From: Tepidisphaerales bacterium
GTDB lineage: Bacteria; Planctomycetota; Phycisphaerae; Tepidisphaerales; Tepidisphaeraceae
NCBI GenBank assembly: GCA_038240605.1
Contig: JBBSDP010000011.1
Coordinates: 75,182-107,181, forward strand
DNA length: 32,000 nucleotides
Direction: 5' to 3'
In this document: piece by piece, positions 21,476 through 30,913 of the stretch
How the letters are laid out: each line of letters opens with the position of its first letter
Numbering within the stretch: the first letter of the stretch is position 1
Program-made: the position numbers and the translations under genes
Notes under the pieces: model-generated
Told to the model about the DNA's origin: nothing
Databases searched by the model: none
What the model saw: the letters and a program-made list of their open reading frames with translations, nothing else

Positions 21476-22000
21476 TCAGTGCGATGTCGATCGCGCCCAG
21501 CTTTTCCGATCGAACATCAGGAAGTTCATGATCATCGGCACTTCCAGGAACAGCAGGATCACGAACCGAGCCATCCCCTTCGTGTACTTGCGGTTGAATT
21601 CCGCCATGTCATGTTCGATGTGGAACTTCTTGTGGCTCCAATTCTGAAGCTGGTAGGCCACCGGGATCATGATCGCGTACGCCCAGATCGGCAGCGTCGG
21701 GATTTCCAGCACCGCCGACACGAGGAGACCCACCAGCCCCGCCGTCACCACCAGAACGCGGAACGGCAGGCAGATCGATAGCGACAGCAGGTATGCGATC
21801 CCCAGTCCGACCGGCGCCCAGGGGCTGCCCGTGAGCCGCAAGACGATCCCGTAGACCGCGTACCAGATGATGAACAGCGCCGCCAGGTGCAGCACGTTAA
21901 TCCCCAGTTGCGAGTGCCGGCACAGGTGCCGCGCATACAACTCGCGGAAATCAACACGCAGCAGGCTGAACGGCTGCGACGGGATTGCCTGAACTTCCAT
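21476..22000 (-). CDS. Small polytopic membrane protein, tentatively Mpo1/DUF962-like
   Basis: ORF 21476..22015, preferred ATG 21998-22000 (MEVQAIPS...) after GGGAGG. About 5 hydrophobic segments. ...YARHLCRHSQLGINVLHL... and ...YQLQNWSHKKFHIEHDMAEF... resemble the His-containing DUF962 blocks, but the family call is weak. Confidence 0.6.
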   Translation of the reverse strand: MEVQAIPSQPFSLLRVDFRELYARHLCRHSQLGINVLHLAALFIIWYAVYGIVLRLTGSPWAPVGLGIAYLLSLSICLPFRVLVVTAGLVGLLVSAVLEIPTLPIWAYAIMIPVAYQLQNWSHKKFHIEHDMAEFNRKYTKGMARFVILLFLEVPMIMNFLMFDRKSWARSTSH

Positions 22001-24131
22001 AGGAGGACCTCCCAAAGAACGCGGACCTGACCACCCGGAAGGCCGCGGCGGCCAGCAACAAAACGAACGGCCGGTTCAACACATCAACGATTGTCGCGCA
22101 CGCCTCGCGAATCACCGCCGGATCGCTCGATAGCGACGGCGTGATCTTCAACACGTTCGGCTCGTACTGACAAAACCCCGCGAGCACCGGCATCCCGCGT
22201 GAATGTCGCAACATCCCCAGCACGTAAAACAGATAGAGCCGATTGCGAAGCCAGCGCTGCGGCCAGCGCCGCGCATCCAGCTCGATCCCGATCAGCAGCC
22301 CAAACACCCGCACCGCGCGCACGGCCCGGTTCGATCCTACTCCCGCTTTCAATAGCCGCTCAACCAGCTCCCCCGACTCGGCGACGCGCGCCTCCAGGCC
22401 CAGCGCCGCCGCTCGCGACAGCACGTTCAGCACCGTCTTGTACCCGTATTCATACCCATAGCGCGCCTGGAACTGCGCGGGGAGATCCGAGCCCGCCCGC
22501 GCGAGCTGTGCCGCCAGGCCCGCCGAATACATCACCAGCGCGAACGGGAACATCATGTCCGAGACGCCCTTGCCGACGACCAGCAGGTCCGGCGAGATCC
22601 CCATCGCCACCGACCGCGCGAACGGGCCGGTGCGATACATCCCCGTCTGCACTTCGTCCACCAGCAGCAGGTATCCCCAGCGCGCTCGCCCCGCCGCCAG
22701 GTGCCGCGCCACCGCCTCCGGCACCGCCCGCACGCCCCCCACGCCCTGCACCAGCTCGAGCTGAACCACCGCCACGGGCGCCTCCGCCAGCAATCGATCG
22801 ATCCGCGCCAGGGCGTCCGGCGCGAACGGGTCGACGTAGACAACGTCGTCATACAGCGGCGCGATGTGCTGCTTGTACGACGGCTTGGCCGTTCCGGTCA
22901 GTGCGAACAGCGTCTTGCCGCCGAACCCCGATGCCAGAGCCAGCACGCGCCGTCGTGGCGATTGCGCCACCAGCGCCATCTTCAGCGCGTTCTCCACCGC
23001 CGTCGCGCCGCTGACGGCGGGTACGCAATGCTCCAGCCCGCTCAACTCCCGCAGCCGTGCCGTGACCTGCTCTACGACCTCGCCCCCGTTCCCCAGCGAC
23101 TCGATCTCGCGCGCATATCCCGGCGGGTTGTGGCCGCGCACACTGCACGCAACACCGCTGACGCCGTCGTACACGCGCCGGCCCCCCTCGGCGAACACGA
23201 AATCCCCCGCCGCCCGCACCTCCGCCTTCTCAAATCCCGACGCCCGAATGGCCTTAAAGAGCGACGCGCTATAGAGCCGTCGGAAGAGCGCCGCGCGATA
23301 TGGCAGATCGGTTTCGATCGCCCTCAGATTCTGCTCGACCGATTCGAAAAACGCCGGATCATTCGACGAAAGACACGACATGAAGTGCAGTGAGCAAATC
23401 GTGTTCGGCTGATACGTCGTGGAGTGAAACGTCGTCTTACCCTTGCGGTTCCAGTGCTCGTACAACTCCCGGCGCGCCGCGAACGCGCCGAAGGCGAGGT
23501 CTCGGTTCGCGAACGAATCATCGAAGACGACGATGTCGGGCGACACCTTCGTCACCGCCCCGCCGCGACCGTCGCGAATGGCCGCAAGACTTTGCCTCGA
23601 GACGGCGGTGATCCATAGCGGCCGCCTTCCCGTCGACCCCGGTTGAAACAAGGATTGGATCTCCTCCGCCGCCGACTCAAAATCACCCACGGACTTTTCG
23701 CCCACGATCAGCGCTATGAACCCAAACTCAGCATCCTTCGGCGCGGCCGCGGCGACCGACTCCACTACCGTCAGCCCCGGCAGAAATTCGATCAGCTCCC
23801 CGTTCGCGCCAGGCGCCGAGGCGAACGGACCGAGGCGGCTCTCAGGGTCGATGATCAACCCGTGGGTCGAGCGCCCTTCGACGTCAGCGGCATATCGCGC
23901 TAGCTTGATCGCGCCGCCCAGCGCTTCGTCGAAGCCGTTGGCCAGATAGGTCTGAAATTCGTGCGGCCCGCCGTCGCTCCCGCGCTCCTCCCACGTCATC
24001 TGCGCGTATTGCTCCAGGCAGTAACAGACCTGCGTGACGTGCGGGTTGACGTAGAGCCGGAACAGGTTCGGCATCTGCTCCCGGATCATCCGGGCGAAGG
24101 TCTCATTGATGGTGGGCGACGACGGCGTCAT
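21951..24131 (-). CDS. Class-III (PLP) aminotransferase with an N-terminal degenerate aminotransferase-like pseudo-domain
   Basis: 726 aa. C-terminal domain: ...GHNPPGYAREI..., ...SGATAVENALKMAL..., ...LLLVDEVQTGMYRTGPFA...SPDLLVVGKGVSD... (canonical Asp and Lys present). N-terminal ~330 aa: ...YLANGFDEALGGAIKLARY... and ...SPDIVVFDDSFANRDLAFGAF...TFHSTTYQPN.... Confidence 0.85.
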   Translation of the reverse strand: MTPSSPTINETFARMIREQMPNLFRLYVNPHVTQVCYCLEQYAQMTWEERGSDGGPHEFQTYLANGFDEALGGAIKLARYAADVEGRSTHGLIIDPESRLGPFASAPGANGELIEFLPGLTVVESVAAAAPKDAEFGFIALIVGEKSVGDFESAAEEIQSLFQPGSTGRRPLWITAVSRQSLAAIRDGRGGAVTKVSPDIVVFDDSFANRDLAFGAFAARRELYEHWNRKGKTTFHSTTYQPNTICSLHFMSCLSSNDPAFFESVEQNLRAIETDLPYRAALFRRLYSASLFKAIRASGFEKAEVRAAGDFVFAEGGRRVYDGVSGVACSVRGHNPPGYAREIESLGNGGEVVEQVTARLRELSGLEHCVPAVSGATAVENALKMALVAQSPRRRVLALASGFGGKTLFALTGTAKPSYKQHIAPLYDDVVYVDPFAPDALARIDRLLAEAPVAVVQLELVQGVGGVRAVPEAVARHLAAGRARWGYLLLVDEVQTGMYRTGPFARSVAMGISPDLLVVGKGVSDMMFPFALVMYSAGLAAQLARAGSDLPAQFQARYGYEYGYKTVLNVLSRAAALGLEARVAESGELVERLLKAGVGSNRAVRAVRVFGLLIGIELDARRWPQRWLRNRLYLFYVLGMLRHSRGMPVLAGFCQYEPNVLKITPSLSSDPAVIREACATIVDVLNRPFVLLLAAAAFRVVRSAFFGRSSYGSSGNPVAAVQPAAC

Positions 24132-24137
24132 ACGTTC

Positions 24138-26177
24138 TCACATGCTCTGCTTGCCCGGGTTGGCGCGAATGACCGCAAACGTTCGCTTCAAATAACCCTC
24201 CACCGCTCCCCGGTTCTTGCGTACCGTGAACATGTCGCACGACACGCAGTCGCTGTCGCGAAACTCCGAATGCGGCAGCCCATCCCGGCGGATGTACCGA
24301 AGCTGAATCTTTCGCACGGGCAGCGATCGGTGGTCCTTCCAGAACTGGAGGAACTCATCGGGCGTGAAGAACAGCTCCACGTGCCACGCCAGCCGTCGCG
24401 TCAATGTGTGCATGAGCCAGGCCGTTACCCGGTTTTCCTCCAGCCGGTCCCAGAGCCGGCCGAGGCTGTCGCGCGGCACTTCCAGCACCGGAGAACTCGC
24501 GTCGCCGGCATCGTTGTAATACTGATAGAGCGTCGCCGCACTGCCCGATGCATTGGCCTTGCGCACCTCCACGTTCGCCGCCCGCTCATCGCGCAGCGCA
24601 TCGAGCAACAACGGGCCGTCCGGATCCTCCAGCGTCTGTTCGCGCACGTAGTAGCGCGACGCCGGCTTCACCCGCATGCGCAGACGCAACAGCAGCACGT
24701 CGCTCGAGAGGTTGTAAACGTGCTCGCGGAATTCAGGCGCCTCACGCCGAGCGGCGATGATCCGGTCGGCGTGCGGGTCGTAGAAGACCGCCCGGGTGAA
24801 CGTGTCGGCGACGCAGGAATAATCCGCCGCCGATCCGTGAATGGGGACGAAGAAAGCGGTGCCGAGCGTGACGTACGAATAATTCGGGATGACGTACAGG
24901 TCCTGCCGATCGGGTGCATGACAGTTTCGGCGGCGAACCTCCTCCCCCCTCTCCCAGTACTCTGGGAGAGGGTTGGGGTGAGGGCAGTTCCCTCGGAGGC
25001 CGGGGCGAAAACCCTCACCCCCGCCCTCTCCCGGCGTACCGGGAGAGGGAGAATCAATTTGGGGCACCGAATCTGTCACGCGCTCCTGCCGATCCGCGGA
25101 GAGGAAGTCGCGCGCCCGGCGGATCGTCGTCCCGCAATCCGCTCCCACCAGATCAGGGGCATAGCGCCGGATGCGATTCAGTTTCACGGTGGAGACGATC
25201 GTCCGTCCCGGATACCGATGCCCGAAATGGTTGACCCCATTGTTGTATCCGACCACTTTCACGTACGGCACGTTGTACGGGTTATAGAGCGCGAGCAATT
25301 CGCCGAACGATGCGGGCCGCAAAGTGCCCACGTTCCAGCTTCGCAGCAATGCGTTCTTGCGCGCCATTCGTTCCAGGACGAACGCCGCCAGCAGGCCAAC
25401 GCCGGTCAGCGCCAGCGCAGCGCAGACGATTTGCAGCAACAGGTGGAAAAACGTGGCGGGCGGGTGTTCCGCCAGCCGTTCCCGCCACGCCCGATTTTCC
25501 CCCAGCATGACCAGGCACCGCACGCGCCGCCGAGAACCCGATGCGGGCGATTGCGTTTCGCCGTCGGCCCACGGCCGACGGATCTCCCGATCGATCGCCG
25601 CAAAAAGTTCCGACCCCTCCAGGCAGCACCCGCGCAATCGACGCGAGACCAGCGGATACAGGAAGCCGAGCCTGCGAAGCGATGCCGTCGTTCGCGATTC
25701 GGGACTGAGCACGCACCCGGTCTCGAAGAGGACGATCGGCATCGTCGTGGCGTCGTCCGTTCCACCCTGAACGTCGCCCAGCATCTGTAGGACGTCGCTA
25801 ATCCCGCTGCCGAACCGGTATTCTGTGACGACAATCACTCGCCGCGCCGCAAGTCGCTGGGCCGTCCCGATCCAGCGCTGCGCCACGGCCGCAACCTCTG
25901 GCGAAAACGTCGGCGGCAGGAACAGCACCAGCGATGCAATCTGTCCCTGCATTGTCGGCGATGACTGTGGCGACCCGCGCGAGTCATCGATGAACCGCAC
26001 CGCGCCCCCTCCATCGCGCGCCGTGGCCGCCTTTGCTACCGAGTGGATGGAGTAGTCCGAGGCCACCCCGTCCCCCAGCCCCACGACCAGCACCGCTTCC
26101 GCGGCGTCGGTCGCTCCAGCGCGGCCTGCTTCCACGGCTGTCGTTTCAGGCGCCGTAAGTAAAGAGAGGCTGGCCAT
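24138..26177 (-). CDS. Membrane-anchored FAD-binding (PCMH/VAO-type, ALO/DprE1-like) oxidoreductase-like protein with an unknown ~230-aa N-terminal domain; carries an in-frame repeat-element insertion
   Basis: 679 aa. One TM segment (FFHLLLQIVCAALALTGVGLLAAFVL). ...YVKVVGYNNGVNHFGHRYPG... and ...YVTLGTAFFVPIHGSA... resemble FAD_binding_4. The C-terminus ...IQLRYIRRDGLPHSEFRDSDCVSCDMF... resembles the ALO-type cap. The family call is tentative. The start overlaps the psd-like stop by 32 nt. Confidence 0.7.
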   Translation of the reverse strand: MASLSLLTAPETTAVEAGRAGATDAAEAVLVVGLGDGVASDYSIHSVAKAATARDGGGAVRFIDDSRGSPQSSPTMQGQIASLVLFLPPTFSPEVAAVAQRWIGTAQRLAARRVIVVTEYRFGSGISDVLQMLGDVQGGTDDATTMPIVLFETGCVLSPESRTTASLRRLGFLYPLVSRRLRGCCLEGSELFAAIDREIRRPWADGETQSPASGSRRRVRCLVMLGENRAWRERLAEHPPATFFHLLLQIVCAALALTGVGLLAAFVLERMARKNALLRSWNVGTLRPASFGELLALYNPYNVPYVKVVGYNNGVNHFGHRYPGRTIVSTVKLNRIRRYAPDLVGADCGTTIRRARDFLSADRQERVTDSVPQIDSPSPGTPGEGGGEGFRPGLRGNCPHPNPLPEYWERGEEVRRRNCHAPDRQDLYVIPNYSYVTLGTAFFVPIHGSAADYSCVADTFTRAVFYDPHADRIIAARREAPEFREHVYNLSSDVLLLRLRMRVKPASRYYVREQTLEDPDGPLLLDALRDERAANVEVRKANASGSAATLYQYYNDAGDASSPVLEVPRDSLGRLWDRLEENRVTAWLMHTLTRRLAWHVELFFTPDEFLQFWKDHRSLPVRKIQLRYIRRDGLPHSEFRDSDCVSCDMFTVRKNRGAVEGYLKRTFAVIRANPGKQSM
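24901..25094. mobile_element. MITE/REP-like palindromic element with an 11-bp flanking direct repeat, inserted in frame in the CDS
   Basis: Direct repeat TCCTGCCGATC at 24901-24911 and 25084-25094. Inverted termini TGACAGTTTCGG (24919-24930) / CCGAATCTGTCA (25067-25078), 11/12 complementary. Internal hairpins at 24947-24972 and 25024-25049, plus the pairing 24975-24984 / 25012-25021. Confidence 0.65.
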
Positions 26178-27036
26178 ATTTCACCTTCTCGTTGGGCGAC
26201 ACTTCATCCGTGATGTCGTCGGCCGGCGGGGTGATCAGCACCACCGTCGAACCCAGCTCGAACGTCCCCACCCACTGCCCGCGCTCCACCGACACCGGCG
26301 GCGAAAAAACCTCCGCCGCCGCCACGCGCTTCTTCGGCCGGAAGTGCGGCGCCAGCGGAAGCCGGATGTTCCCCACGCCCCACCCCGCCACCATCACCAG
26401 CAGGCACGGGCCCAGCCGGGTCGAGAATCGCAGGATCATCCGCTCGTTGAGCGTGTAGACCGGATAGGCCGACGTCTGGAACGGCGGGTGCACCAGCAGC
26501 CGTGCGCCGGGAACATGAATCGCTTTCTCCAGCAACCCGTCCTGCGGACTGAAGACGCGATGACAGTCGATCGGCGACAGAAACACGATCGCGAACCGCC
26601 CCTGCTCGAAGGGGCGCGGATCCGTCCGCGGCAAGAGCGATTCCAGGCTGTACTCGATCCCCTTGAGTGTCAGCAGCCGTCCCTGCTCCACCCGCCCCAC
26701 ATCCTGCACCGTCCCGTCCGATGGACACAGAAACTGGCGAGTTCCCTGCGGGATCGGACGGAACTGCGGCTTGATCCCGCGCGTGAAGAGCGCATTCAGC
26801 GACGGATACTCGGCCAGCGGCTTCTCCGCTTCCCCTTCGTTCAACCCCGGCGGATATTTTTTCGTGAAGATGCCCCGGTAGAGCGAAGGCCGCAGCCGGC
26901 GCGCGGGAATGCGCAGGCGCGAGAGGCGGATCCCCAGCGCCGCCACCAGCAGCTTGGGGAGGCTGCCATGGATCTGCTTCGCCTGGCGGAACTGCTCCCG
27001 CCGGATCCGCCGCGAATTTCGTTTCACCTTGATCAT
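26146..27036 (-). CDS. psd: Phosphatidylserine decarboxylase family proenzyme (short type)
   Basis: 296 aa. ...FLCPSDGTV..., ...VFLSPIDCHRVFSP... (the LSPxDYHR-type block), and the ...FELGSTVVL... self-cleavage LGST motif. Confidence 0.85.
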   Translation of the reverse strand: MIKVKRNSRRIRREQFRQAKQIHGSLPKLLVAALGIRLSRLRIPARRLRPSLYRGIFTKKYPPGLNEGEAEKPLAEYPSLNALFTRGIKPQFRPIPQGTRQFLCPSDGTVQDVGRVEQGRLLTLKGIEYSLESLLPRTDPRPFEQGRFAIVFLSPIDCHRVFSPQDGLLEKAIHVPGARLLVHPPFQTSAYPVYTLNERMILRFSTRLGPCLLVMVAGWGVGNIRLPLAPHFRPKKRVAAAEVFSPPVSVERGQWVGTFELGSTVVLITPPADDITDEVSPNEKVKYGQPLFTYGA

Positions 27037-27063
27037 GAGCGGAATTGGATGCAGGTTCGAGAA

Positions 27064-28596
27064 TCAGGCCTCAGCGGCGACCACCCCCGCGACGCGCAGG
27101 GCGTTGGCGATGATCGTCAGCGCCGGGCCCACGCCCAGCGACGTCGGAAAGAAACTCCCGTCGACGACAAAGACATTCGGATGCCCGAACACCCGGCAAT
27201 CCCGCCACAGGACCGCTTCGCGCGGGTCGGTGCCGAATCGCAGCGTCCCGCACTGGTGGGCCACGTGCTCCTCCGATGCAAATCCGCTGTTCAGGCAGAG
27301 CATCGCCCCCGCGCGATACAGGATCCGCGACATCAATTCCCGGAGCGTCTTCCCCCGTTCCAGGTCATACGCGCCAAAGCGATGGGCGATGCGCGGCCGG
27401 CCATCCGCGCCCCACGACACGGCGTTCGACGGATCCGGCAAATCTTCGATGATGCCGACCAGCGGCAGGATGCGCCGCCGCAGGAACTGAATCAGCCAGC
27501 GCGGCAGAAAAGCCGGCGCCGATTTCGCCGCCAGCAGCGGCCCCGGCACCGGCAGCGACTGCACCAGCCCCAGCTTGTGCGCATAGGCCGGCGTCCCAAA
27601 GTAATAATCCGCGAACCCCACCTGCTTCACGAAATTCGAATCCGCCTCCGTCCGCCCGCGAAACATCCCCGCCACGATCGGCGAAAGATGAACCATGTAA
27701 TTCCGCCCGATCAGCGGCGCGTTCGCCCCCGACTTCAGCAACACCAAAGGCGAACCCAGCGCCCCCGCCGCCAGCACATATCGGCTTCCCCGGTAAACCG
27801 TCCGCGCCCCGCTCCCCCGATCCACCGCTTCGACACCCTGCGCTTCCCCCCTCCCATCCAGCAGCAGTCGCTCCACTTCGGCGTTCGTCACCACCCGCAA
27901 CGGCAACCCGTCGGCCACCGCCTGATCCAGCAACTGCGCGGAGGATTTGCGCGCCCCGGTCGGGCAGATGTAACCGGCGCACACGTTGCACTGAATGCAG
28001 CGCGACGAATCGATCGCCAGCGGAAGCCGGAACGGACGCAGCCCCTCGGCGCGATTCCCGTCGATCAGCCGTCGATTCATCGGATGCAGCGGCAACGGCC
28101 CGGCCGTCGTCACATGACGCGGACGGTGCAGCGGACCAAAGTCCGCGTCGGCGTCGTCCGCGCAGCCGCACACCCCGAAAAGCCGTTCGGCTTCGGTGTA
28201 GTGCGCCTCCAGCTCGTCGTATTGAACCGGCCAGTCCCAGATCGCCCGCGGAATACGGCTCCCGTAATGCCGCCCCGGCTGAAAATCATCCCGGCTCGGC
28301 CGCAATAGTGCCGCCCCGTACAAGCTCGTCCCCCCACCCAGCACGCCCCCCATGTAAAGCCGTTTGCTCGCCCCGTTCACCTCGACATCGCGGTCATCGT
28401 ACGGCTTTTTCTCAATCAGCATCGCCCGTTCATCATGCCCCTGGGCATCGATGCCCGGCCCGCCGGATCGTTCCGCCCCATACCGTTTCCCGCGCTCCAG
28501 CAGGATCACCGACTTGCCCGCCCTGGCACAGGCATACGCCAGCGTAGCGCCCCCCGCGCCGCTGCCAATGACGATCACATCACCATCATGCGCCAT
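27064..28596 (-). CDS. GMC-family FAD-dependent oxidoreductase
   Basis: ORF 27064..28641 (TTG), preferred ATG 28594-28596 after GGAG: MAHDGDVIVIGSGAGGATLAYACARAGKSVILLERG (GxGxxG). ...CIQCNVCAGYICPTGA.... C-terminal ...HQCGTLRFG...NVFVVDGSFFPTSLGVGPALTIIANALR is the GMC_oxred_C pattern. Confidence 0.85.
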   Translation of the reverse strand: MAHDGDVIVIGSGAGGATLAYACARAGKSVILLERGKRYGAERSGGPGIDAQGHDERAMLIEKKPYDDRDVEVNGASKRLYMGGVLGGGTSLYGAALLRPSRDDFQPGRHYGSRIPRAIWDWPVQYDELEAHYTEAERLFGVCGCADDADADFGPLHRPRHVTTAGPLPLHPMNRRLIDGNRAEGLRPFRLPLAIDSSRCIQCNVCAGYICPTGARKSSAQLLDQAVADGLPLRVVTNAEVERLLLDGRGEAQGVEAVDRGSGARTVYRGSRYVLAAGALGSPLVLLKSGANAPLIGRNYMVHLSPIVAGMFRGRTEADSNFVKQVGFADYYFGTPAYAHKLGLVQSLPVPGPLLAAKSAPAFLPRWLIQFLRRRILPLVGIIEDLPDPSNAVSWGADGRPRIAHRFGAYDLERGKTLRELMSRILYRAGAMLCLNSGFASEEHVAHQCGTLRFGTDPREAVLWRDCRVFGHPNVFVVDGSFFPTSLGVGPALTIIANALRVAGVVAAEA

Positions 28597-28764
28597 CCAT
28601 GCTCCGCGGGATTCACCCAACCTGCGCGCACGTTCAGGCAATTACCTTTGATTTACAAGTGCGATACAATCCATTTAACCAAACCTTCACCCGACCTTCG
28701 CGCAGCGACGTGAGGCGACAGCCGTACCATCGATCCGCTGATCAACGAGCCGAGGGAACCTGAC

Positions 28765-30598: not shown

Positions 30599-30913
30599 TG
30601 GTCAGTTGCCAGTTGTCCGTTGTCCGTTGTCCGTTGTTCTTGGTCAGTTGTCAGTGGTCAGTTGTCGGGAAAAGGAAGAAGTTCCGCGTATTGGCCAACT
30701 TGAATGCTCAGTGCGCTCCGCGTTCTCTGTGGCCTCCGCGCTTATGCGAATGGGTCCGCGCGAGCCAGTGGCCACCGAGGGCACGGAGAACACCGAGAGG
30801 CACAATGGCCTGATCGAGGCTGCGCACAACGGACAACTGACAACTGACAACCGACAACTGACAACTGACAACGGACCACTGACATCTTCACGACAACGGA
30901 CAACTGACAAAAA
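30599..30913. repeat. Composite element: inverted arrays of 7-nt tandem repeats flanking a core that carries its own imperfect inverted repeat
   Basis: Left array 30599-30668: 10 units of TTGTC(A/C)G. Right array 30826-30881: 8 units of ACAAC(T/G)G (the reverse complement), plus 3 more units at 30893-30913. Core inverted repeat 30716-30740 vs 30773-30797, 19/25 complementary. Confidence 0.85.

Follow-up and report, generated by a model that had tools for sequence, protein, structure and literature searches.

A 174-bp segment of the window (the whole 32-kb stretch of DNA analysed here) is probably a copy of a MITE, a non-autonomous transposable element, with imperfect terminal inverted repeats and an inverted pair of BoxC/PIT/TM motifs, inserted in a flavoenzyme gene. 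Its features are those of MITEs: small size, terminal inverted repeats, a flanking duplication, a dispersed multi-copy family, and filled and empty sites. It lies below the MITE size limit of ~400 bp, carries no ORF or transposase gene of its own, and occurs once in the 32-kb window. An earlier note, made from the sequence alone, had already proposed a MITE-like insertion here. The BoxC/TM core, the extended terminus, the probable 9-bp duplication, the frame-neutral length and the recurrence of in-frame insertion are absent from that account. Features and coordinates are collected in Table 1.

Table 1. Parts of the element and of the host locus, in window coordinates
Feature	Position	Strand	Sequence or basis
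Putative MITE, 174 bp	24912-25085		Bounds are the conserved element sequence in relatives, GGGTGCATGACAG... to ...CTGTCACGCGCTC
Probable target-site duplication, left copy	24903-24911	.	CTGCCGATC; basis: terminus consensus and the 9-bp duplication of L148
Left terminal inverted repeat	24912-24934	+	GGGTGCATGACAGTTTCGGCGGC; 1 mismatch vs family consensus GGGTGCGTGACAGTTTCGGCGGC
Left linker, terminus to TM hairpin	24935-24946	.	Unpaired interior loop in the fold
Left BoxC/TM motif	24947-24984	+	Hairpin CCCTCTCCCAG-tact-CTGGGAGAGGG, TT, GGGGTGAGGG
Central spacer between the TM motifs, 27 nt	24985-25011	.	
Right BoxC/TM motif, inverted	25012-25049	-	CCCTCACCCC, CG, hairpin CCCTCTCCCGG-cgta-CCGGGAGAGGG
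Right linker, TM hairpin to terminus	25050-25062	.	
Right terminal inverted repeat	25063-25085	-	GAGCGCGTGACAGATTCGGTGCC (minus-strand reading); 17/23 identical to the left terminus
Probable target-site duplication, right copy	25086-25094	.	CTGCCGATC
Terminus sequence of the element, search form			GGGTGCGTGACAGTTTCGG
Host gene, 679 aa (618 aa without insert)	24138-26177	-	Insert is residues 365-425; N-terminal alpha/beta domain, two predicted helices at ~residues 243-279, predicted VAO/PCMH-type FAD-binding oxidoreductase domain
Downstream operon neighbour, extended class-III aminotransferase	21951-24131	-	
Upstream operon neighbour, phosphatidylserine decarboxylase	26146-27036	-	Its end overlaps the host start by 32 nt
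First gene of the conserved cluster, GMC-family FAD oxidoreductase	27064-28641	-	

Insertion, boundaries and reading frame

The host ORF runs through the segment without a stop, and the translation given in the earlier note is correct. The orthologue alignment for which that note had called has a 61-residue gap in 26 of 26 orthologues, where the empty site reads ...GQ(D/E)LYV(I/V)PNYSY... At the DNA level, removal of the element and one copy of the repeat rebuilds an empty site that is colinear with two orthologous loci (L158 and L159). The host gene belongs to a conserved four-gene cluster, and synteny is kept in both loci.

The palindromic structure of the segment is far beyond chance. Two perfect hairpins with 11-bp stems lie at 24947-24972 and 25024-25049, as had been described; their pattern is found twice in the window against none expected (100 shuffles). 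The pairing of GGGGTGAGGG (24975-24984) with CCCTCACCCC (25012-25021) also holds, and falls within a larger inverted repeat whose 38-nt arms are 87% complementary. Outer arms of ~35 bp, which end in the terminal inverted repeats, enclose this core. For the 194-nt segment, the predicted folding energies of the two strands are -119 and -128 kcal/mol (z = -7.5 and -9.2). An Rfam scan of 24700-25300 matched no bacterial family and gave sub-threshold microRNA-precursor matches alone, of the kind that any long hairpin gives. We give next to no weight to a native linker of the host protein family with coincidental palindromes: the absence of the block from all 26 orthologues and the dispersed repeat family to which its DNA belongs refute this, and such structure is not expected by chance.

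The earlier note bounded the segment by a direct repeat of 11 bp, TCCTGCCGATC, and placed inverted termini just inside it. The repeat is present at 24901-24911 and 25084-25094, 183 nt apart, and the termini TGACAGTTTCGG and CCGAATCTGTCA are 11/12 complementary, as claimed. The extents differ, however. The terminal repeat reaches further out (GGGTGCATGACAG...) in at least 13 independent ends, and the duplication is best read as 9 bp because of the element bounds in relatives and the perfect 9-bp duplication around another full copy (L148, below). The remaining 2 nt of the repeat are most likely the tip of the right terminus, matching the left flank by chance.

The net insertion is 183 nt under either reading of the duplication (9 or 11 bp). 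The 61 codons of an insertion "exactly in frame" are thus confirmed, but the in-frame length is built into this copy (174 + 9), so that the downstream frame is kept after any insertion of it. The copy is stop-free in three of its six frames, and about half of random intragenic insertions would therefore leave an ORF uninterrupted. In the favoured explanation, a transposase acting in trans would have made a staggered cut in the gene and placed the element there, duplicating 9 bp of target (CTGCCGATC). With its net length and open frame, the insertion would then have added a 61-residue block and kept the frame downstream. Ribosome bypass of the hairpin between the duplicated codons finds no support, the frame being open.

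Palindromes and repeats are sequences at which assemblies break, and a chimeric or fold-back join at the palindrome could produce such a segment. A second assembly (Logan, SRR24807096; contig L157), which we reached through a lookup of a neighbouring gene, itself ends inside the element, and many partial family copies in metagenomes lie at contig ends, as is expected of a multi-copy repeat. Up to its end, however, the Logan contig matches the window at 99.975% identity across 4,023 bp and continues for 81 nt inside the element; the agreement of the two assemblies supports the gene-element junction on that side. The element is also complete, with matched termini and duplicated host sequence, and the host frame continues exactly. 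We therefore consider an assembly artefact very improbable. An exact-protein lookup of the host gene returned no record.

A paired BoxC/PIT/TM core

The interior of the element (24947-25049) is, by its sequence, an inverted pair of the known BoxC/PIT/"TM"/HPGQ motif. BoxC/PIT/TM elements have been known since the 1990s and are strikingly conserved across bacteria. We know of no function or means of spread that has been established for them. TM(ECO) is described as an intrastrand-triplex motif, and also, under the name HPGQ, as a G-quadruplex-hairpin switch (Bachellier; Hoyne/Maher 2000; Holder et al. 2015, PMC4666352; Kaplan et al. 2016, PMC5100583). The motif is defined by a C-arm, a loop of 3-6 nt, a complementary G-arm, a linker of 2-3 nt and a third, G-rich arm, GGG(G)TGAGGG. 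This arrangement occurs in both halves of the core, on the plus strand at 24947-24984 and on the minus strand at 25012-25049, and each half follows the type-B layout given for TMECO (PMC4666352, Table 1): CCCTCTCCC, loop, GGGAGAGGG, 2 nt, GGGGTGAGGG. The G-rich part of the left motif is a G3-N3-G3-N2-G4-N3-G3 tract (four G-tracts).

The pattern GGGAGAGGGNNGGGGTGAGGG is present at no fewer than 120 genome loci from many phyla, and paired TM elements in other taxa have spacers of 17 to 89 nt. The inverted-pair configuration has been described for five E. coli loci (Holder et al. 2015, PMC4666352). The window core resembles the known motif in layout, in its inverted pairing, in its recurrence across phyla and in a potential, as judged from the bases, for hairpin, G-quadruplex and triplex formation; the computed folds are hairpins alone. 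In E. coli the motif is reported to be always intergenic and not tied to mobile elements (Holder et al. 2015, PMC4666352), whereas the window copy lies inside the 679-aa ORF. Intergenic location is a reported property of the E. coli motif and not a structural criterion.

A second difference is the frame around the core. The window core is set between its ~35-bp outer arms and the 9-bp duplication, whereas filled and empty E. coli alleles are without a clean duplication. In canonical E. coli BoxC pairs (hrpB-mrcB, alx-sstT), comparison of such alleles shows the pair collapsing to a single hairpin; in one empty allele the flanks have diverged and a clean duplication is lacking. As these differences are collapses and diverged flanks, they provide no evidence on how the core moves.

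REP elements do not, to our knowledge, make 9-bp duplications. They resemble the core in being short GC-rich palindromes, single or in inverted pairs, are mobilised by RAYT transposases, and form two superfamilies defined by a GTAG or CGTC head (Di Nocera et al. 2013, PMC3733652). The window hairpins start CCCTCTCCC and end GGGAGAGGG and have no GTAG/CGTC tag, and we rejected REP/RAYT membership. With classical bacterial MITEs (Correia, ERIC, Nezha, Coxiella QMITEs; PMC10969869, PMC3184786) the element shares small size, the lack of an ORF, terminal inverted repeats and a target-site duplication, as well as a long hairpin fold, many dispersed copies, and filled and empty sites. It differs from them in having no known parent IS and in its cargo, which is a cross-phylum motif and not an IS remnant.

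The element family and its spread

At least 13 independent ends in metagenome contigs share GGGTGC(G/A)TGACAGTTTCGG, begin at the same nucleotide and have unrelated outer flanks; several of the family termini occur within one metagenome. Together with a full metagenome copy, L148, which is flanked by a perfect 9-bp duplication (CCAAGCGGC), these extended termini bear out the MITE-like family that had been proposed. The linkers in relatives of the element are variable and often T-rich. A clean duplication is found in two copies only, those of the window and L148; L144/L125, L122 and L161 have no clean flanking duplication. L144, L122 and L161 are older copies.

We did not find an autonomous element with the same termini in the collected loci, where termini 0.1-6 kb apart were seen only in the MITEs themselves. 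Viral contigs gave 0 matches to the element termini and no autonomous partner. Nor did a literature search find a paper with the peptide signature (see below), or with the terminus sequence in a relevant context.

This lack of a transposase partner among the collected loci and viral contigs would fit a spread that needs no transposase, in which BoxC/TM pairs are propagated through gene conversion between copies, or through template switching or break repair where the DNA can form hairpins, triplexes or G4, and the flanking repeat is a repair footprint. Holder et al. could not link TM motifs to transposons and tie the motifs to local instability (PMC4666352), the E. coli alleles differ by collapses between repeated arms, and pair-only inserts such as that in LpxB have no outer arms. 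However, the window family has defined termini, as seen in the common starting nucleotide of its ends, and exact 9-bp duplications abut these termini at two unrelated sites, which is the signature of staggered-cut transposition. We regard spread by DNA structure as unlikely for this element. Outer arms are absent both from the LpxB insert and from the canonical E. coli BoxC pairs, and neither has a clean duplication. Thus, the core module may also spread by another route.

In-frame copies and the host protein

The fold of the host protein was settled by structure search, since profile searches had no match. Pfam and NCBIfam gave no matches on the protein with or without the insert (PF01565 included), and a search of the host profile against the PDB was marginal (E = 0.019). 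The PF01565 profile is found on several homologues of the protein. In Foldseek, the AF2 model of the host matches alditol oxidase, GalLDH, DprE1 and cholesterol oxidase (E = 7e-10 to 1e-6, probability 1.0), the best match being alditol oxidase 2vfs (E = 7e-10). The host is, on this model, a VAO/PCMH-fold flavoprotein (FAD_binding_4 fold), which agrees with the flavoenzyme suggested earlier. The insert is placed by the model where the earlier note had put it, within the FAD-binding domain; the helix ...RRARDFLSA lies before it and the strand LYVIPNYSYVTLG after it.

The inserted block of 61 residues is rich in Pro, Gly and Glu, and is predicted to be a disordered excursion between this helix and the following strand. 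The host model has a pTM of 0.77, with pLDDT <50 across the insert (residues 364-436). In the model of an insert-free orthologue (pTM 0.81) the loop directly after the insertion site is also weak, so the weakness there is intrinsic to the host protein family.

The same peptide signature is found in ~70 protein clusters, among them LpxB, an RsmD-type methyltransferase, a helicase and PMT_2 glycosyltransferases. These matches required an exhaustive search; a word-indexed protein search with the 61-aa peptide found four short ORFs only. The LpxB insert, which is pair-only, is carried by two orthologues that are 75% identical, and 12 others lack it. Its hairpin arms are 90-98% identical between the orthologues, whereas the coding sequence is only 73-75% identical; at third codon positions the identity is 89% in the arms versus 56% in the host. 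In-frame insertion of this type of element is recurrent, and essential genes are included.

By analogy with LpxB, we lean slightly towards an enzyme that tolerates the loop. Inactivation of the enzyme by the same element is possible, though somewhat less probable; the gene would then be a very young pseudogene with its frame intact only through a frame-neutral, stop-free copy. The 61 residues lie inside the FAD-binding domain, directly before the conserved ...TLGTAFFVPIHGSA segment, the host mRNA would bear a hairpin of about -128 kcal/mol, and roughly one insertion in two would leave the frame open by chance. The perfect hairpins and the perfect duplication also point to a recent event, the duplication by itself suggesting as much, and after a recent event an undecayed host gene says little on function. 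Set against this, the window protein keeps every family-invariant residue (all 130-odd columns invariant across 27 sequences), the insertion falls where a helix meets a strand, and the remaining model is confident. The gene is also mid-operon with an overlapping start, where its loss might be polar, and the same type of element has stayed in frame in LpxB orthologues that differ by 25% in protein sequence and occurs in other housekeeping proteins.

Rickettsia palindromic elements (RPE) are the best-known case of such insertion. In the accounts through which we cite them, they are palindromic repeats of ~100-150 bp, in frame in unrelated genes, with the peptide kept in the product (Ogata et al. 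2000, via PMC10969869, PMC3184786). The likeness is the in-frame palindromic insertion, with the peptide signature of the window element recurring in ~70 protein clusters including LpxB. The differences are the host phylum, the relatives here being Tepidisphaeraceae (Planctomycetota), and the BoxC/TM core, clear termini and target duplication of the window element. We see the element as a likely analogue of RPE and not a member, with a likeness that appears to be one of function and not of sequence.

It is also conceivable, if improbable, that the inverted BoxC/TM pair is a selectively maintained module and not passive junk, with the outer repeats and the 9-bp duplication as its vehicle and in-frame copies kept for their DNA or RNA structure. 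The observations behind this proposal are the conservation of the LpxB arms and the recurrence of the same 20-odd nucleotides across phyla. If it were true, the structure may pause translation, switch between hairpin and G-quadruplex in the mRNA, or guide recombination.

For genome annotation, the signature SPSPGTPGEGxGEG...PHPNPLPEYRERG flags insertions of this type, as well as the many spurious short ORFs that derive from them. In-frame copies show which protein loops tolerate 40-60 extra residues. The terminal inverted repeats and 9-bp duplication around the BoxC pair suggest a testable route of mobility for the motif. The finding carries in-frame selfish DNA, best known from Rickettsia, over to genomes of the Planctomycetota type and to essential genes, lpxB among them.

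Insertion of the element into the host gene

The earlier note described a palindromic segment lying within an uninterrupted flavoenzyme gene, and its account of the structure holds. The direct repeat TCCTGCCGATC is present at both ends, the two hairpins have perfect 11-bp stems, GGGGTGAGGG is complementary to CCCTCACCCC, and the inverted termini TGACAGTTTCGG and CCGAATCTGTCA are complementary at 11/12 positions. The 679-aa ORF runs through the element without interruption, with ADRQ doubled at both junctions. The hairpin pattern has an expectation of 0 in shuffled sequence. The whole segment is predicted to fold as a single long hairpin (z-scores of -7.5 and -9.2 for the plus and minus strands, respectively). 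The repeat had been taken as an 11-bp duplication, but against the family consensus it reads as 9 bp (CTGCCGATC), and the remaining 2 nt would be the tip of the right terminus. A Logan assembly of SRR24807096 is 99.975% identical across 4,023 bp and stops 81 nt inside the element; one junction is thus backed by a second assembly.

Homologues of the host protein number in the hundreds and are mostly 560-620 aa long. All of those aligned (26/26) have a gap of exactly the 61 residues and read ...GQ(D/E)LYV(I/V)PNYSY... at the empty site, in agreement with the proposed insertion. Removal of the element and one repeat copy yields ...GACTTCCTCTCCGCGGATCGGCAGGACCTGTACGTCATC..., and L158 and L159, the orthologous loci, are colinear with it codon for codon. 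A native, conserved 61-aa linker is ruled out, since the block has no counterpart in the aligned orthologues and the empty site is colinear.

Coordinates of the element, its host region, other repeats in the window, and full family copies
Feature	Location	Strand	Description
Four-gene cluster	21951-28641	minus	Conserved; also in L158 and L159
Host gene	24138-26177	minus	679-aa ORF
Direct repeat	24901-24911; 25084-25094		11 bp
Element	24912-25085		174 bp on family consensus
Left hairpin	24947-24972		11-bp stem
Right hairpin	25024-25049		11-bp stem
GTCAGTT array	30601-30666		7-nt tandem repeat, 9.4 copies
ACAACTG array	30826-30910		7-nt tandem repeat, 12.6 copies
Full copy	L148		219 bp; perfect 9-bp flanking duplication CCAAGCGGC
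Full copies	L144/L125, L122, L161		Older; no clear duplication

The ACAACTG array is the complement of the GTCAGTT array in inverted orientation, and together they enclose about 160 bp; this stretch is apparently intergenic.

The BoxC/TM core and the outer termini

Both arms of the element core match GGGAGAGGGNNGGGGTGAGGG, which a scan of the genome collection placed at at least 120 loci in Pseudomonas, Enterobacteriaceae, Acinetobacter, alphaproteobacteria, Acidobacteriota, Verrucomicrobiota, Planctomycetota, cyanobacteria, and others. The loci listed share the layout (t)tCTCCCTCTCCC-loop-GGGAGAGGG-NN-GGGGTGAGGG, often followed past a variable spacer by an inverted second copy. This motif is known as BoxC, PIT, or the G/C-rich intrastrand triplex motif TM/TMECO (Holder et al., 2015, PMC4666352), and as the HPGQ G-quadruplex-hairpin switch (Kaplan et al., 2016, PMC5100583). 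We found no Rfam family for it. Each half of the core has the type-B layout of TMECO, and the element satisfies the structural definition of the motif. According to the BoxC/TM literature, E. coli MG1655 carries 23 copies, five of which are arranged as inverted pairs; they have neither promoter nor terminator activity, and the motif is tied to local genomic instability. The E. coli copies are reported to be always intergenic and without transposon association, whereas the present element is intragenic and linked to mobile-element anatomy. With a two-pair enterobacterial query, E. coli genomes gave a median of 17 matching places each. In some genomes, single TM motifs are repeated in tandem at intervals of about 110-330 bp, and their flanks are conserved (L007:433-756, L030, and L022; Pseudomonas and Rhodanobacter), which suggests a larger repeat unit holding one TM each.

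What distinguishes E. coli strains at hrpB-mrcB (L162/L166) and alx-sstT (L163/L165) is a precise collapse across the repeated GGGAGAGGG or CCCTCTCCC arms that leaves one hairpin in place of the pair, in agreement with Holder et al. One further allele lacks the element entirely, with diverged flanks and no clean duplication. These alleles argue neither for nor against transposition of the bare TM pair.

The outer terminus is found in none of the at least 120 TM loci listed. A metagenome scan recovered the terminus with a TM arm on 36 contigs, a subset of which resemble the element well beyond the search pattern. At least 13 independent termini share their exact starting nucleotide and the sequence GGGTGC(G/A)TGACAGTTTCGG(CGGC), and continue through a short, often T-rich linker into the TM hairpin; the DNA outside them is unrelated among copies. 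Another seven hits fall at the ends of contigs, where multi-copy repeats, which break assemblies, would be expected. These shared termini, the 9-bp duplication around L148, and the filled versus empty sites bear out the proposal of a MITE-like element, and the anatomy is that of a MITE. The other full copies are intergenic, and the window's intragenic copy is therefore the unusual one. In L122 (reverse strand, 1813-2103), the left TM hairpin has some 130 bp of AT-richer, unrelated DNA in its loop, which may be a nested insertion, or the loop may have served as a target. A search for an autonomous partner element in the collected loci and in viral contigs found none. Identity with REP elements was rejected because the GTAG/CGTC tag is missing.

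TM-pair blocks within other proteins

When 1.84 billion cluster representatives were searched exhaustively with the block, 70 proteins came back with the signature SPSPGTPGEG(G/R)GEG - variable - PHPNPLPEYRERG. In a literature search we found no mention of this peptide signature, and the terminus string was met solely in papers on unrelated subjects. Many of the 70 are short ORFs running across intergenic copies; there are also genuine domain proteins in which the block is internal, including LpxB, an RsmD-type methyltransferase, an Lnb-family protein, two PMT_2 glycosyltransferases (P0151 and P0163), and a DEAD-box/PriA-like helicase (P0126) with one complete TM-pair block at about residue 58 and only half of one (APSPGTPGEGGGEG) at about residue 270. 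In-frame insertion of such blocks into genes is thus recurrent. P0151 and P0163 (33% identical) carry the block at an aligned position between transmembrane segments, either as a very old insertion or as one permissive loop hit twice; the alignment may itself have been pulled by the block.

Two LpxB proteins, P0161 and P0191 (labelled Tepidisphaeraceae), are 75% identical and have the block in one shared position; it is missing from 12 other LpxB orthologues. It represents a single old insertion kept in an essential gene. Between the two genes (L160:2205-2321 vs. L167), nucleotide identity is 90.2% and 97.6% for the TM arms, 73-75% for the host coding sequence, and 50% for the insert spacer; at third codon positions it is 89% in the arms vs. 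56% in the host. This pattern points to nucleotide-level constraint on the arms, or to concerted evolution/gene conversion, as what keeps them constant. The LpxB insert is a TM pair alone; hence the module in common is the pair, with the outer arms defining a sub-family.

The host flavoprotein and survival of the insertion

The host protein has no Pfam or NCBIfam match, with or without the block, and no Pfam model detects its family; PF01565 is present on several homologues. Its AlphaFold model is confident (pTM 0.77) and matches VAO/PCMH flavoproteins, namely alditol oxidase (E = 7e-10), L-galactonolactone dehydrogenase, DprE1, and cholesterol oxidase. The predicted fold and PF01565 on the homologues support its assignment as a flavoenzyme. 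An alpha/beta domain lies at its N-terminus, and two helices are predicted near residues 243-279. The gene belongs to a cluster with a GMC oxidoreductase, a phosphatidylserine decarboxylase, whose end overlaps the flavoprotein start by 32 nt, and an extended class-III aminotransferase. The cluster may encode a lipid head-group pathway.

The block (residues 365-425) comes after a helix (352-362) and before the strand LYVIPNYSYVTLG, and is modelled without secondary structure (pLDDT <50). A model of an orthologue lacking the insert, built from an alignment of equal depth (pTM 0.81), is likewise weak in the loop past the insertion site (block means 70, 65, and 52), so most of this weakness belongs to the family itself. 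All columns invariant across 27 sequences are retained in the host protein. Tolerance of the block by the enzyme is judged slightly more likely than a knockout.

The insertion is exactly in frame, as the earlier note held, but this alone is unremarkable. Element and duplication add 183 nt, so this copy would keep the downstream frame wherever it landed. It is stop-free in 3/6 combinations of orientation and phase, the TM motif contributing a TGA to one frame per strand, and an open frame is thus expected in about half of its intragenic insertions. The closest analogue by function, and by function only, is the Rickettsia palindromic element, the textbook selfish DNA in frame inside genes (PMC10969869, PMC3184786). 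Here, a MITE-type element carrying a BoxC/TM pair as cargo most probably inserted into the host gene, duplicating 9 bp, and gave a VAO-type flavoenzyme a disordered loop. That the copy is frame-neutral and partly stop-free accounts for how such insertions may survive.
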